From the NCBI GenBank assembly GCA_964367445.1, contig CAYIXS010000001.1, positions 19,054-64,036 on the forward strand: a stretch of 44,983 nt of DNA, read 5' to 3'. The position numbers and the translations under genes were made by a program. Shown one piece after another: positions 3,056-41,471 of this stretch (position 1 is its first letter; each line of letters opens with the position of its first letter). Source of the DNA: Candidatus Woesearchaeota archaeon. GTDB taxonomy: Archaea > Nanobdellota > Nanobdellia > SCGC-AAA011-G17 > JACPIM01. The notes beneath the pieces are model-generated. The model made no database searches, had not been told where the DNA came from, and saw only the letters and a list, made by a program, of their open reading frames with translations.

Positions 3056-3672
3056 TTTTTCTTTTCTGCTTTTTCTTTAACTTTTTTTGATTTAGTAACT
3101 TCTCCAGTTTGCATTTTTCCTTCTCTTTTGTGCTTTGGTTTTTCCTTTTCTGGCTTTGATTTGGGTTTTTTTACTTCTATACCTAATTCTTTTAACTCTT
3201 TGATCACTACTTCTGTTGAAGCTTTTGGCTTAATTTTAATTTTTTTATCTAAAGTTTCAATATGTTTTATATTTGCCTTTTTTCTTCTCACTTGGCCATC
3301 TAACAAAACATAATTATTATCTATTATATCAACTATAACCCCTATTTTTCCAGCATCTCTGCCCTGTGTTTTGATTATTAATCTTCCTGTTTCTATTTTT
3401 TCATTTACTACATTAAACTTCTTGCTTATTGCTTCTGCTGTACAAGAATGGCATAAGAAACCGCCAAACATCCTCTCTGGTCTTCGCTGTACTTTTGGCA
3501 TTCTCCTCAAGTTAACTGCCCTCTCCCTTGGTACACCATGCAAGATATTTCCGCAATGGGCACAATGAGCTTGATTTGGTTTTCTTTTTCTATAGTGTAT
3601 AGCTAATTTACCACCAGGTAGCTTTACTTTAATTCTCTTAAAACTCCTTGTTCTGTGTGGTTGTAGTGGCAT
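3052..3672 (-). CDS. Ribosomal protein L34e fused in frame to ribosomal protein L14e, with a Lys-rich tail
   Basis: N-terminal ~95 aa: L34e (MPLQPHRTRSFKR..CAHCGN..CHSC Zn ribbon). Residues ~97-170: L14e KOW domain (GRLIIKTQGRDAGKIGVIVDIIDNNYVLLDG). No stop codon between them. Confidence 0.85.
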   Translation of the reverse strand: MPLQPHRTRSFKRIKVKLPGGKLAIHYRKRKPNQAHCAHCGNILHGVPRERAVNLRRMPKVQRRPERMFGGFLCHSCTAEAISKKFNVVNEKIETGRLIIKTQGRDAGKIGVIVDIIDNNYVLLDGQVRRKKANIKHIETLDKKIKIKPKASTEVVIKELKELGIEVKKPKSKPEKEKPKHKREGKMQTGEVTKSKKVKEKAEKKK

Positions 3673-5575: not shown

Positions 5576-5991
5576 TTGGATGTAGCTATAGAGCCTCCTG
5601 CTTTTTCTATTTTTTCTTTTGCTAGTTCAGAACAAGATTCTACTTTTATGATATATTTTTTAGTTACTTTTCCATCTCCTAAAAGTTTGTTAAAACCTAA
5701 GTCTATTAAGTTTATTTCTGTTTTATTGAACTTTGCTAAATCGCCTACATTTAAGGTTTTTATTTTTTTATTGATAATTTTTTGTGGTCTTTTGAAACCT
5801 GACTTACCAAAATAGTTATTTAATCCAAATTTTTTTATTATGGTTGGTTTTAATTGATCTGATTTCTTACCTGATCCAGCTAGTCCACGACCACCACGAT
5901 TGCCTGCCCCTCTATGTTTTTTCATTGCGCCCCAACCGTGGGTTTTTGAACCGCGCTGTCTTGAATTTTTCCTTCTCTTATTAACCGCCAT
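5572..5991 (-). CDS. rpl15: 50S ribosomal protein L15 (uL15)
   Basis: N-terminal RKNSRQRGSKTHGWG..GAGNRGGRG motif; operon order. Confidence 0.95.
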   Translation of the reverse strand: MAVNKRRKNSRQRGSKTHGWGAMKKHRGAGNRGGRGLAGSGKKSDQLKPTIIKKFGLNNYFGKSGFKRPQKIINKKIKTLNVGDLAKFNKTEINLIDLGFNKLLGDGKVTKKYIIKVESCSELAKEKIEKAGGSIATSK

Positions 5992-10381: not shown

Positions 10382-11058
10382 TTGAACTCCTTGTCTATAA
10401 CGAAAGCATAATCTTTTCTGGTAACTATTTTTTTAGAATCGACATTTAATATAACTCTGTCTTTACTTAAACCCTGAAAATGTTGCAGCTCTTGTAGTAT
10501 ACCAACGGTTCCTTGGTGTTTGCCTTGTGTTAGGTAAACTAGCGCTCCTTTTTCTAATTTTAGGTGTTTTTTAATTATTTTATTTGATAATACTATAGAA
10601 TCCCCAACCTGGCAGGTATTTTTGTCTACTAAAATATTTTTACCATCATATAAGTTTAATTGTAATCTGCCTTTCTTTAATATTTTCTTGCCAATTATTT
10701 TACAAATTTTTGAATCAGAGTCGCTTTTACTTATAGTAATTGCAGATAATTTTCCGTTTCTGTATAAAATTATGTAATATTCATTAAAATTAGGAATGGA
10801 AATTATATCCATCAACCCTATTGGGAATCGGTAATCTTTTCTTACTATGCCATCAACTAAAATTTTACCATCATTTAAAATGTTTTTAACCTCTTTTGTG
10901 GTTGTTGCATGGTTGATAACATCTTTCAAGAGGGTGTTTAGTGTTATTGAATTAAGTAATCTGTGCGGACCGGGCAATGGCCTAGCTATATATTTTCTTT
11001 CTTTCCTAATCTTTATGGGTAATGATCTAGGAATTCTTATTCTTTTCAGATGTGACAT
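10378..11058 (-). CDS. rps4e: 30S ribosomal protein S4e
   Basis: HLKRIRIPRS..PLPGPH start, plus S4 and KOW regions. Confidence 0.95.
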   Translation of the reverse strand: MSHLKRIRIPRSLPIKIRKERKYIARPLPGPHRLLNSITLNTLLKDVINHATTTKEVKNILNDGKILVDGIVRKDYRFPIGLMDIISIPNFNEYYIILYRNGKLSAITISKSDSDSKICKIIGKKILKKGRLQLNLYDGKNILVDKNTCQVGDSIVLSNKIIKKHLKLEKGALVYLTQGKHQGTVGILQELQHFQGLSKDRVILNVDSKKIVTRKDYAFVIDKEFK

Positions 11059-17276: not shown

Positions 17277-17399
17277 TTTTTAGACTATGAACTAGAATCA
17301 GCGGCTGAATTTTAGGCTTTCATTTTTAAATAACCTTTTTTTATTAATCAGTAGGGTAAAGGTTTTGTTAGAATTAGCATTTATAAAGCTATCGAAAAA

Positions 17400-17465
17400 T
17401 TAATTTTTAAATTTTAGAGAAAAAAATAAAAGTTAGTTCTAAATTTTTTTAGGCGCCTACGGCGC
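17400..17465 (-). repeat. Conserved 3' module, copy A (AT-rich flank plus GGCGCC-TAC-GGCGC palindrome spanning the stop codon)
   Basis: Aligns with 40671-40735 at roughly 85-90% identity with 3 single-nt indels (hand alignment): ttaatttttaaa..agaaaaaa.taaaa.gttagt.ctaaat.ttttt.ggcgcct.cggcgc. Confidence 0.8.
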
Positions 17466-18201
17466 ACGGAAACACCCCGAGCCCCGCATACGAGTCCCGC
17501 GGATCCCAGCTGTAGCTAAGGCTGGCCCTATCAGAATCGGCAACGAACCTAGCGACAGAATCAAGCCTAGGATAGACAAAATAAACTGTTTTTCCTGGTT
17601 CATATTCTTGAACTTTTGCTTTCTTTGTTAGAAATCCTTGACTATTTGTTGATTCTAGCTCTGCAAAACAATCTTCTTCTAAACAATCTTCTAAATGCTC
17701 TCTTTTTAGTATTGGTCTTCCTTTTTTATCTAAACCTGTAATTGTTACTAAATCTAGTCCAAGAAATCCTTTTCCTTTTGGAAATCTAGCATTAAGAACA
17801 ACCCAACAATTATGATTTATAACATTAGCATAATCATTTAATCTTTTTCCTTCTATTAAATTTCCAGCAGCATCATATAAAACACTTTTTCCTTGTAAAG
17901 TATCATTAACATTTTTATAATGCGGCATAAAAATTGAAGGTGTGGGAACAAATAAACCAGATTGTAAAACTTTAACATTTGTAGGAATAAACTGAAAACT
18001 ATTAAATCCCCACATCATGGAAATAGCATAGTCTTCTTGATCTCCTTCTTGAACTAAAGCATAATTTTCCGGTTTTATTTTAGCTTTTGTTTGAAAATGA
18101 TCAATATGTTTAGGAAAAGAATAGATTCCATCTGGTTTTTCTACATAAACCCTATTTGGATTTGTTTCAACTTCTTTTCTTCCTATGATTTGAACTACCA
18201 T
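17449..18201 (-). CDS. Hypothetical protein with a GC-rich, adenine-poor C-terminal segment (cassette A)
   Basis: 250-aa ORF with no signal peptide or TM. TATA box ~23 nt upstream of the ATG. C-terminus ...RASLSYSWDPRDSYAGLGVFPCAVGA. No family recognised. Confidence 0.7.
   Translation of the reverse strand: MVVQIIGRKEVETNPNRVYVEKPDGIYSFPKHIDHFQTKAKIKPENYALVQEGDQEDYAISMMWGFNSFQFIPTNVKVLQSGLFVPTPSIFMPHYKNVNDTLQGKSVLYDAAGNLIEGKRLNDYANVINHNCWVVLNARFPKGKGFLGLDLVTITGLDKKGRPILKREHLEDCLEEDCFAELESTNSQGFLTKKAKVQEYEPGKTVYFVYPRLDSVARFVADSDRASLSYSWDPRDSYAGLGVFPCAVGA
17452..17573 (-). other. DGR-variable-region-like segment (compositional anomaly)
   Basis: Hand count gives ~62% G+C. On the coding strand A is ~12% and T ~26%. 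Run of NNC/NNG codons (AGC TAC AGC TGG GAT CCG CGG GAC TCG ... TGC GCC GTA GGC GCC), while the rest of the gene is AT-rich. Confidence 0.45.
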
Positions 18202-19832: not shown

Positions 19833-20747
19833 ATGAATGAGCTTGATGGATTGAGTAGAACAGAGTTAAATAAACTTTTAGCTGTGTTATTGTTAACTGA
19901 TGGATCTGTTTTAAAAAAAGAATATGGTTATCATACTTTTAGGCTTTTAACTTCTGAAAATAGTAAGCCCTTGCACCTTATTTTTAGAGAACTGTGCCTT
20001 AAATTATATAATAAGCCCCCTTCTTTTAGGAGGGTTATAAGAACTGGTAATTATAAAAAACAACCCTTTCTATTCTCAGAACTATTTTATAGCCGAGCAT
20101 GGGAAGAAATGAAGAACCTATCCCCCGCATTTAAAACATCTCCGCGCTATAATCAAACTACTAGAGAATACTTGCAGGAACCACAACCAGATATCTCCTT
20201 TTTATTAAATTCCTCTAAGAAAATTCGTGGTTTGGCTTTGAGGTTGTGGTTTGATTTTGACGGTAGTTTGAGTCCAGCGGTCTCTTTAAAAAGAAAAGTA
20301 GAGAATAAGAATGGAAGAACTTATGAGTATTACCAAGTTCAAATCTCTTTTTCTTGGCAAATATCGGAAACAAATCCAATTTTGGTAAAACAACTTATAA
20401 AGCTATGTAACTCCCTCGGTCTTGATGCAAAATTAAAAAAGGATAAAAGAAAGTGGAGTGGTTTTGATGGTATCACTTTATCCTCTAAAAATAATATCTT
20501 GAAGTTTATAAATTTGGGTGGTCCTTTAACTAATGTTAGCATAACTAAGAACAGTAAAAATTTCTATGGTATTACCAAAAAGAATATGTGTCTTAGTGTT
20601 CTTAATTTAATAAAACATAAATATTCACTCTCCGCTCATTTTATTAAAAGAGATGATGCAGAAAAATATAGAGAAGATTTAAAAAAGAGGATCATTAATT
20701 TAATATTAAAGCCCCATAGTGTAGCGGCCAAATTAACAGATGGTTAG
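19833..20747 (+). CDS. Free-standing double-motif LAGLIDADG homing-endonuclease-like protein
   Basis: Motif 1 LLAVLLLTDGSV (aa ~15-26) and motif 2 LRLWFDFDGSL (aa ~136-146). The last 38 nt overlap the tRNA-Gln 5' exon and intron 1. Confidence 0.75.
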   Translation: MNELDGLSRTELNKLLAVLLLTDGSVLKKEYGYHTFRLLTSENSKPLHLIFRELCLKLYNKPPSFRRVIRTGNYKKQPFLFSELFYSRAWEEMKNLSPAFKTSPRYNQTTREYLQEPQPDISFLLNSSKKIRGLALRLWFDFDGSLSPAVSLKRKVENKNGRTYEYYQVQISFSWQISETNPILVKQLIKLCNSLGLDAKLKKDKRKWSGFDGITLSSKNNILKFINLGGPLTNVSITKNSKNFYGITKKNMCLSVLNLIKHKYSLSAHFIKRDDAEKYREDLKKRIINLILKPHSVAAKLTDG

Positions 20748-23740: not shown

Positions 23741-23871
23741 ACGCCAGTAGTATAACGGTTTAGTATCGAAGCTTCCCAAATAAGGATTGCATCCTTATCA
23801 ACCTGCAAGAAAACCTTAGAAAAGAAAATTGGAAAAAGCTTTGGATCCGGGTTCGATTCCCGGCTGGCGTA
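23741..23871 (+). tRNA. tRNA-Gly(CCC) with a ~58-nt intron at or near the canonical 37/38 site
   Basis: Acceptor ACGCCAG/CTGGCGT. D arm GTAT-AACGGTTTA-GTAT. Anticodon arm GAAGC-TTCCCAA-[intron ~23780-23837]-GCTTT (CCC at 23775-23777). T arm CCGGG-TTCGATT-CCCGG. Confidence 0.8.
23780..23804 (+). other. 25-nt hairpin motif inside the tRNA-Gly intron (copy of the rpl3-rpl4 spacer element)
   Basis: ataaggattGcatccttatcaacct versus ataaggattCcatccttatcaacct at 16278-16302. The only difference is the central loop nucleotide. Confidence 0.85.
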
Positions 23872-40652: not shown

Positions 40653-40670
40653 ATTTAAAATGTAATCAAA

Positions 40671-40735
40671 TTAATTTTTAAAATTTATAGAAAAAATAAA
40701 AAGTTAGTCCTAAATCTTTTTGGCGCCTGCGGCGC
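40671..40735 (-). repeat. Conserved 3' module, copy B (AT-rich flank plus GGCGCC-TGC-GGCGC palindrome)
   Basis: See 17400-17465. In this copy the ORF reads 4 codons further (..GAKKI*). Confidence 0.8.
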
Positions 40736-41471
40736 TTTCGACGACTACCCGACCATCGGAAATCGAGTCAACAAGATTGTCCCTGTAGGAGTACAAATCC
40801 AAGTACCTGTCCAAGTACAACCAAGAAAGGCCTTCTTGTCTTGCATAAAAAGTTCTAAGTTTATTTCTTTCTTCTTTACTTAATTGAGATATTTCTTCAT
40901 CGCTAAGGAAAATAGGAACTCCTCTTTCATCTAATTTTATGAATCTTCTACCATTATTTTCATAAGCTAATTCTGGAGCATTGATAACTGTTGTTTGATC
41001 TGTTAGTTTGAGATTAAGGCCATAGTCATTATTTGCTTTTACTGGCTTCAATGGCCCTGATATTAGAACTGGGAATTTGGTTTTTTTAGCTTGATTTAAT
41101 AAACCAGCTATAATAGAATTATTTCTTTCATAAGAATCTTCAGGAGTTCTTAATACTAAAGCTAAATAATCTTCATAATGCTCTCTTAATGCTTCTGGAT
41201 TTGTTTCTACTAATGATTCTAAAGTTGCTATTGAAGCAGGAGTTATGCCTTGTCTGATTAATTCATAAAGAACAAATGGATTTGAACCTTGTGGTTCTTG
41301 TGTTTGCTCATTGAAACTTAGAACATTTAATGACCTTAAAGCATTATCTTTGTAATCTGCTCTTATTCTTTCTTGATAAGCTTGAACTTGTGCTTTTGAT
41401 AAATATCTTGCTTTAGGTAGGACTATTCCTTTTGGGATTACTGGAATTCCTACAATTAATGGATTTGTCAT
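40710..41471 (-). CDS. Hypothetical protein with a GC-rich, adenine-poor C-terminal segment (cassette B)
   Basis: 253-aa ORF with no TM or signal. C-terminus ...EGLSWLYLDRYLDLYSYRDNLVDSISDGRVVVESAAGAKKI. No family recognised. Confidence 0.7.
   Translation of the reverse strand: MTNPLIVGIPVIPKGIVLPKARYLSKAQVQAYQERIRADYKDNALRSLNVLSFNEQTQEPQGSNPFVLYELIRQGITPASIATLESLVETNPEALREHYEDYLALVLRTPEDSYERNNSIIAGLLNQAKKTKFPVLISGPLKPVKANNDYGLNLKLTDQTTVINAPELAYENNGRRFIKLDERGVPIFLSDEEISQLSKEERNKLRTFYARQEGLSWLYLDRYLDLYSYRDNLVDSISDGRVVVESAAGAKKI
40722..40834 (-). other. DGR-variable-region-like segment (compositional anomaly), copy B
   Basis: Hand count gives ~53% G+C. On the coding strand A is ~17% and T ~30%. 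Many NNC codons (TAC GAC TAC TAC TCC TAC GAC GAC TCC GTC GTC AGC GCC GGC GCC). Confidence 0.4.

Follow-up and report, generated by a model that had tools for sequence, protein, structure and literature searches.

The 44,983-nucleotide stretch analyzed here (hereafter the window; Candidatus Woesearchaeota archaeon, contig CAYIXS010000001.1, positions 19,054 to 64,036) contains, at 17452-17573, a compositionally aberrant segment within the 3′ end of the open reading frame (ORF) at 17449-18201. This segment is very probably the variable region (VR) of a nanoarchaeal-type diversity-generating retroelement (DGR) target, with the other parts of the DGR located elsewhere, on a separate contig and probably in the same genome. 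The principal evidence is a template repeat (TR) from which the VR differs at adenines only, lying beside a reverse transcriptase (RT) gene in the sample series of the window's own contigs. Nanoarchaeal DGRs, their remote targets, the initiation of mutagenic homing (IMH) element, and the triloop hairpin have already been published; Paul et al. 2015 (Nat Commun 6:6585, PMC4372165) described a nanoarchaeal DGR IMH with TGGGGT versus TGGAAT in IMH*, GRA-triloop hairpins within nanoarchaeal target genes, and RT-less "partial DGRs". The features of the window on which the argument draws are the following:

17449-18201, minus strand: target gene 1, 250 amino acids (aa), nanoarchaeal 'group ii' DGR target family
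17489-17557, minus strand: VR1 core, 69 nt, approximately residues 215-238, colinear with the mutagenic part of the TR
17473-17488, minus strand: 3′ part of VR1 with the IMH-like motif TGCGGGGCTCGGGGTG, counterpart of the TR segment TGCGGAGCTCGGAATA (IMH*)
17453-17465, minus strand: target-site hairpin GCGCC-GTA-GGCGC, a 5-bp GC stem with a GNA triloop, within the last codons of target gene 1
17397-17452, minus strand: conserved 3′ flank, an A-tract and then TTTAGAACTAACTTTTATTTTTTTCTCTAAAATTTAAAAATTAATTT, 88% identical to 40668-40721 of the second locus
40710-41471, minus strand: target gene 2, 253 aa, no Pfam domain, second DGR target family
40760-40832, minus strand: VR2 core, 73 nt, colinear with the TR of L026-L028
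40745-40759, minus strand: IMH-like segment of VR2, CCGATGGTCGGGTAG, whose TR IMH* counterpart is CCGATGGGCGAATAG
40723-40735, minus strand: target-site hairpin GCGCC-GCA-GGCGC of target gene 2
40668-40722, minus strand: second copy of the conserved 3′ flank, matching that of the first locus

A sequence-only reading of the window had proposed the DGR variable region on compositional grounds and had noted that no RT or TR lies in these 45 kb, an absence that was borne out. The best adenine-tolerant match in the window has at least 12 non-adenine mismatches in 80 nt, a regular expression for TR hallmarks has no match in the window or in the 10 kb past each end, and tblastn found no RT in the window, in these extensions, or in the RT-less loci. 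When a metagenome collection was scanned for a TR-specific pattern with intact adenines (AGGAATYCNCAGAACTCGAAA), 36 loci were recovered, five of which are Hainich H51 0.1 µm R1 contigs belonging to the sample series of the window's contigs. Contig L052 (replicate R1) and its R2 counterpart L071 (loci are designated by L and homologous proteins by P) carry the TR TGTCGCTAGGTTCAATGCCGATTCTGATAGGGCCAACCTTAACTACAACAGGAATCCGCAGAACTCGAA, from which the VR1 core differs at 10 of 21 adenines and at none of the 48 other positions (p = 1e-6). Among 23 distinct TRs only this one has zero non-adenine mismatches to VR1, the next best having four, and the match extends to a lineage-specific TAC in place of the TGC usual in the family. 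Directly 3′ of the TR in L071 is an RVT_1 ORF, as is also the case in L003, L005, L025, and L026; the RT of L071 and L052 contains the RVT_1 domain, the motif LGNLTSQ, and YVDD. An (I/L)GxxxSQ motif is typical of DGR RTs. The search of the wider metagenome that had been suggested thus returned both a cognate TR with adenine-only differences and an adjoining RT, and the proposal of a DGR variable region is supported accordingly.

The coverage of the cassette contigs tracks that of the window contigs in three replicates (R1, 8 versus 6; R2, 8.88 versus 8.97 and 8.33; R3, 5.45 versus 5.68 and 5.13), and the cassette contig and the window are likely parts of one genome. VR1 also aligns over its full length with the published group ii TR, differing at 10 of 19 adenines and 8 of 48 other positions, as expected across species (one A was restored to the published string, apparently dropped by the PDF text).

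The composition of the segment is explained by this template. On its coding (minus) strand the segment contains 12.3% A, 27.0% C, 34.4% G, and 26.2% T, and its G+C content of 61.5% compares with 29% G+C and 39.5% A in the remainder of the ORF, figures that agree closely with the ~62% G+C, ~12% A, and ~26% T estimated by hand in the sequence-only reading. Average G+C over the whole window is 30.9%, and 120-nt windows across the 45 kb have a mean of 30.8% with a standard deviation of 5.6%; the highest of all their peaks, at 62.5% and more than five standard deviations above the mean, is this segment. G+C at third codon positions (GC3) rises from 0.09 in the body of the ORF (209 codons) to 0.63 in the last 41 codons, confirming the reported switch to C and G. 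The second gene said to share the anomaly, ORF 40710-41471, does so more weakly, with a G+C peak of 51.7% at 40713-40845 and GC3 of 0.11 in the body versus 0.58 in the tail. Besides these two tails a single peak in the window reaches 50% G+C or more, at 5869-5990 (51%); it corresponds to the Arg/Gly-rich N-terminus of ribosomal protein uL15 and is not DGR-related. The TR core of L052/L071 is 30% A and its non-adenine scaffold positions are G+C-rich; in the VR1 core 7 of the 10 replaced template adenines have become G and 3 T, leaving 16% A. VR1 is therefore G+C-rich and A-poor because it derives from an adenine-free, G+C-rich scaffold in which about half of the remaining adenines have been replaced.

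No Pfam domain was found in the target gene 1 protein, for which 34 homologues were recovered from DPANN archaea (Woesearchaeota, Pacearchaeota, and Nanoarchaeota). The gene adjoins the rpl3 operon, just upstream of it, and has the same placement in L001. The body of the homologues is conserved, and their last ~45 residues alternate a fixed scaffold with highly variable positions (A..S..A.L.C...P.....LGVF.CAEG), forming a C-terminal module that ends at least three different protein families. Related genomic loci were sought with an alignment of 13 closer sequences, and in 13 of 14 loci from different species the tail is 50-59% G+C versus 30-38% in the body; the DNA of the tail is conserved across species, synonymous sites included. 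Variation among orthologues had been expected to be limited to particular codons, and it falls mostly at those that are AAC or AAT in TRs: over 19 VRs, mean column entropy is 1.48 bits at TR adenine columns versus 0.65 bits elsewhere (p = 5e-9). The orthologues in L003 and L005 belong to full cassettes in the order target, second target, TR, and RVT_1 RT, and their two VRs each differ from the TR at 9/22 and 16/22 adenine sites with 0/50 mismatches at other sites (L003), and at 14/19 and 11/21 adenine sites with 0/48 and 1/53 mismatches at other sites (L005).

Several other members of the family occur apart from a cassette. The closest homologues of target gene 1 (P0004 and P0005) are on short contigs without a TR. 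The L006 orthologue (SCGC AAA011-G17) has 52% protein identity to target gene 1, and its tail is the published 'OTU1 VR3 remote fragment' (Paul et al. 2015, Suppl. Fig. 4), with one non-adenine mismatch in 47. Orphan VRs of other species can likewise be paired with TRs, L001 10600-10759 with that of L040 and L006 10640-10795 with that of L037, at one non-adenine mismatch each. Since these near-cognate TRs are on unrelated metagenome contigs, remote or unlinked targets seem to be common in the family. The exceptional fourteenth locus, a Woesearchaeota metagenome-assembled genome (MAG) orthologue (L011 10600-10753), has an AT-rich tail (32% G+C, 32% A) that lacks the IMH and the hairpin. This is apparently a VR in decay that has come to resemble its genome in composition, and hence a natural control for a long-abandoned target.

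Overall, VR1 occupies approximately residues 215-244 of 250, at the 3′ end of the protein-coding target, and its codons GTT, AGC, AGC, AGC, GAT, and GAC correspond to TR codons AAT or AAC. Homology to the TR resumes 3′ of a hairpin present in the TR (described below), with the IMH-like motif in VR1 opposite its IMH* counterpart; the IMH reads GCTCGGGGT in VR1 versus GCTCGGAAT in the TR, and this GGGGT/GGAAT contrast agrees with the published nanoarchaeal IMH and IMH* (PMC4372165). The GC palindrome reported at the end of the gene is present at 17453-17465 but, instead of overlapping the stop codon (17449-17451), lies immediately next to it. The hairpin pattern has two matches in the window versus 0.09 expected, and as DNA the first copy folds at -5.7 kcal/mol (z = -2.4). 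In homologues the hairpin is kept at the nucleotide level, with a loop that is always GNA and with compensatory changes in the stem: L006 has GTGCC-GAA-GGCAC, and L012 has TTGCGC-GAA-GCGCAA, which encodes a different peptide.

The two tails of the window had been thought to align over only their last ~15 nt. They share in fact a block of 69 nt, 88% identical (17397-17465 and 40668-40735), which comprises the hairpin, an A-tract, and then TTTAGRACTAACTTTTTATTTTTTCTMTAAA…TTTAAAAATTAATTT, and which reaches ~55 nt beyond the stop codons into intergenic DNA. Similar flanks are found 3′ of the hairpin in L001, L014, and L032. The shared flank may be a terminator or a further cis element. An integron attC site or a miniature inverted-repeat transposable element was considered for this block and set aside, as the window holds only two copies and the hairpin is explained by DGR cis elements.

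Mechanistically, the cassette (target, target, TR, and RT) would transcribe the 69-nt template repeat together with its 3′ elements, and the RT would copy this RNA, misincorporating opposite adenines. The cDNA would then replace the homologous 3′ stretch of a target gene, guided by the IMH (…GCTCGGGGT…) and the GC hairpin with its GNA triloop. TR codons AAT, AAC, AGG, and CAG would thereby become NNT, NNC, NGG, and CNG, such that about a dozen residues could be recoded on a fixed scaffold (VA.F.A.S..A.L.Y...P..S...LGVF.CA.GA). VR1 would have been rewritten by this route in trans, now or formerly.

Every TR of both DGR families encountered here contains an extra hairpin of 18-45 nt, which separates the mutagenic core (…AACTCGAA) from the IMH* (…CTCGGAATA or GGCGAATAG). 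The TRs with this hairpin include:

L052 3957-4105, minus strand
L071 ~10,830-10,980, minus strand
L003 8276-8392
L005 9755-9869
L025 7087-7210
L026 6212-6326

The outer stem of the hairpin is CTCG/CGAG (or CGGG); there is also an AAA bulge, and the inner stem differs in sequence among 27 TRs with complementarity kept, that is, it covaries; the CGGG variant forms a G·U pair, which points to structure in RNA. VRs lack the hairpin and are colinear with the TR minus the hairpin, and VRs vary at an adenine 3′ of its position (TGCGGAGC). It follows that the cDNA would have to span both sides, with the hairpin skipped or removed. No mention of such a hairpin was found in the text of Paul et al. 2015. 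A bulge-helix-bulge intron was rejected by reasoning on geometry, the AAA bulge standing 3′ of the 4-bp helix on its strand, which is wrong for the archaeal splicing endonuclease.

Target gene 2 has the homologues P0036-P0044, two of which, P0036 (77% identical) and P0040, are followed immediately downstream by a TR and an RVT_1 RT. VR2 differs from the TR of L026, which belongs to another organism, at 9 of 22 adenine sites and at none of 51 other sites (p = 5e-6), against ~85% DNA identity to the L026 locus outside VR2 (80-97% per 60 nt). ORF 40710-41471 is very probably a second DGR target served by a different TR family, and the earlier supposition that the tails of the window are remote targets with separate templates proves right. 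Target gene 2 lacks the ~30-aa extension that follows the hairpin in its relatives; given the missing extension and the 3′ flank common to both loci, its 3′ end could have been replaced by recombination.

The cassette itself varies within the population. L071 11193-14008 contains two tandem 300-aa target copies flanking an NTP_transf_2 gene and a 145-aa ORF, a pair that may be toxin-antitoxin-like. The first 780 nt of the tandem copies are identical and all 19 subsequent differences are in the VR. Between the R1 and R2 assemblies of the cassette there are 22 mismatches in 4.5 kb, of which the TR-adjacent target accounts for 20, with 17 inside its ~70-nt VR core and three just upstream of that core. 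This concentration of differences in cassette VRs indicates that the DGR is active in the population, or was very recently. The segment-restricted variation that had been anticipated is thus seen at the TR-adjacent target of the cognate cassette but not at VR1, which is the same in four other assemblies, suggesting that the remote target is rewritten rarely or not at present.

Whether the product has the C-type lectin (CLec) or formylglycine-generating enzyme (FGE) fold of known DGR targets, as the sequence-only reading anticipated, was addressed with an AlphaFold2 model of target gene 1. The model has a predicted local distance difference test score (pLDDT) of 93.4, and ~90-96 in the GC-rich region. 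Among the top 50 Foldseek matches are many C-type-lectin-like domains (CTLDs; LOX-1, CD23, NKG2D, CLEC12A, and SP-A) and the DGR proteins TaqVP and Mtd, at template modeling (TM) scores of 0.2-0.5, yet no match in the PDB is significant (best E = 0.36), and a sequence search of the PDB with the family profile gave no meaningful match. The anticipated fold is therefore weakly favored by the high placing of CTLDs, TaqVP, and Mtd; the likeness to the 'GFRCA' ending of FGE-type targets could not be substantiated. From the model, a divergent CLec fold of the kind found for AvpA (PMC5006420) is plausible, in which case the product would be a ligand-binding, C-type-lectin-like protein.

The insignificant fold match is one of several findings that weigh against the favored reading. 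Four other assemblies from the same well carry VR1 and the surrounding 1 kb unchanged despite 7-11 single-nucleotide polymorphisms elsewhere, and VR2 is identical in two. The cassette contig is in ENA records only and is absent from the NCBI MAG to which the window's genes belong, four further group-ii TR contigs occur in the sample with the cassette, and tetranucleotide composition does not discriminate among these DPANN contigs. The hairpin loops of the window are GTA and GCA, whereas those of DUSEL4 are reported to be constrained to GRA. No Avd-like accessory gene was identified, the stretch between target and RT in L071 having no obvious small basic ORF, although no search aimed at Avd was made; the Hainich contigs examined likewise yielded no cognate TR for VR2, none of the scans being aimed at the VR2-type TR. 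The RT of the cassette is likewise interrupted in one replicate: a poly-G tract has 10 G in R1 (L052 ~3364-3390), where the frameshift splits the ORF.

The same tract has 12 G in R2 (L071 ~10,230), where the RT (L071 9751-10977) is an in-frame ORF of 408 aa, and the R3 contig (L073) stops exactly at the tract. The difference reflects either a mistake in assembling the homopolymer or slip-strand switching that turns the DGR on and off. An exact look-up of intact RT products found none on record, only frameshifted products, the intact G12 form being that seen in L071. The RT family of L026 has more than 7,800 members, none of which could be tied to the window's MAG.

The alternative that deserves most attention is a sub-case of the DGR reading, in which VR1 is a fossil or quiescent region that was written by a DGR in the past and is now rarely or no longer a substrate. 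Invariance of VR1 in four other assemblies, set beside a cassette-adjacent VR that differs between replicates, is what such a region would show; its hairpin loop is GTA, not GAA or GRA, the tail of L011 demonstrates that decay does occur in the family, and Paul et al. 2015 raised a like alternative for RT-less fragments (PMC4372165). Consensus assemblies at 5-9x cannot, however, reveal minority variants. Long abandonment is argued against by the complete agreement with the TR at 48 non-adenine positions, synonymous sites included, and by the intact IMH and hairpin, when L011 shows what real decay looks like; nor has the tail, still at 61.5% G+C, drifted toward the composition of the genome. 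We regard a fossil VR as possible, with less than an even chance.

Explanations that dispense with reverse transcription fare far worse. Conservation of the scaffold residues across species, even at synonymous positions, would suit a GC patch representing an invariant, conserved domain or a GC-rich fragment acquired by recent transfer, but the variable columns coincide with TR adenines, cognate TRs show adenine-only differences, and a patch found in 13 of 14 AT-rich species is not recent; such an origin is extremely unlikely. Because a GC island in the genome of an AT-rich archaeon is often the sign of an RNA gene, and because a block and hairpin recur at the 3′ end of both loci, the island might instead hold a gene for a structured non-coding RNA, on one strand or the other, or an att site derived from a tRNA, with the ORF reading through it. 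Against this, no Rfam family reaches its gathering score and ARAGORN calls no tRNA at the GC island, both strands of both patches fold like shuffled controls (z -0.7 to +0.1), and frame and scaffold residues are conserved in the 34 homologues across a region modeled with high pLDDT, making an RNA gene or att site improbable in the extreme. Recombination or GC-biased gene conversion among paralogous C-terminal modules could keep tails G+C-rich, and is compatible with a module common to several protein families and with the 88% identity between the 3′ flanks of the two window loci. It would neither confine differences to template adenines nor create an A-rich non-coding copy beside an RT, and is very unlikely overall; gene conversion is contradicted for the VR cores but might still explain the shared 3′ flank.

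Three observations in the window and its surroundings concern other genes. The left-end ORF (207-1139) is 310 aa in one replicate assembly (L018 11366-12298) and 772 aa in another (L019 11366-13684), and two places close to the start of the window contain matching 55-nt stretches; the region holds either a repeat-containing gene of variable length or an assembly collapse. An Rfam tRNA match of 131 nt (43.2 bits) at 23741-23871 on the plus strand, presumably containing an intron, was missed by ARAGORN, which called no tRNA in the window. At 19833-20747 (plus strand), after a metallophosphoesterase gene, a 304-aa ORF has a weak LAGLIDADG_3 match, and just past the right end of the window (L015 3892-7659) is a CDC48 gene with an intein bearing a LAGLIDADG domain.

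Returning to the DGR target, the case is instructive in that composition alone (a G+C-rich, A-poor, GC3-shifted gene end in an AT-rich genome) correctly flagged it with neither RT nor TR in view. A gene adjoining the ribosomal-protein operon of a DPANN archaeon from groundwater is thereby connected with a DGR that appears to be active elsewhere in the population, and these 45 kb yield a further orphan target distinct from the first. The contrast between a cassette-adjacent VR that varies between replicates and a remote VR that does not bears on the efficiency of DGRs in trans. The TR hairpin, the RT poly-G tract, and the shared 3′ flank of orphan targets may be new. A bolder synthesis, which we put forward as speculative and rather unlikely, is that the template RNA is not colinear with the VR, its hairpin being skipped or removed in making the cDNA, that slippage in the poly-G tract (G12 intact, G10 frameshifted) turns the RT on and off and makes hypermutation phase-variable, and that remote targets, including that beside the ribosomal-protein operon, are rewritten only in rare bursts. 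Were it true, GC-rich, A-poor gene ends in AT-rich DPANN genomes would constitute a large hidden set of remote targets missed by RT-centered surveys; large DGR surveys themselves state that remote targets are missed (Roux et al. 2021).

Known systems resemble that of the window to differing degrees. AvpA (Handa et al. 2016, PMC5006420) is likewise a nanoarchaeal target of ~250 aa with a short, near-C-terminal VR, a hairpin in the ORF, and a fold not predictable from sequence. Unlike AvpA, target gene 1 shows none of the motifs GxxVVVYAH, HPxxxPFxG, and RFxGV; the PDB profile search found no sequence similarity between the two, and AvpA is not among the top 50 Foldseek matches. The Treponema denticola DGR, with seven remote tvpA-like targets, and the non-adjacent targets of Wu et al. 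2018 (PMC5758913) also combine one TR and RT with several targets, some of them remote, that are recognized through adenine-only differences to the TR. Those systems, however, are bacterial, with FGE-type C-type-lectin targets and Avd present, whereas the window system is archaeal and its target proteins have no Pfam domain.

The mechanism assumed here is that established for Bordetella phage BPP-1 (Mtd/TR/Avd/bRT), with adenine-specific mutagenic reverse transcription, a 3′ VR, a GC-rich IMH, and a homing hairpin downstream. In BPP-1 the hairpin has a GRNA tetraloop and lies outside the coding region, and the TR is colinear with the VR; in the families of the window the triloop hairpin is within the ORF, and the TRs have an extra 18-45-nt hairpin that is missing from the VRs. 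The closest relative is DUSEL4 group ii (PMC4372165), which shares the target family, the TR family (…GTCGCTAGGTTCAACGCCAAT…CCTCAGAACTC), the GGGGT/GGAAT contrast, the trinucleotide-loop hairpin in the target gene, and targets without an adjacent RT (remote fragments VR2 and VR3). The window differs from it in coming from a Hainich groundwater MAG, in its GTA and GCA loops, and in the location of the target beside a ribosomal-protein operon, and here, moreover, the cognate TR is found on a separate contig and VR variation is seen at the cassette at the level of the population.

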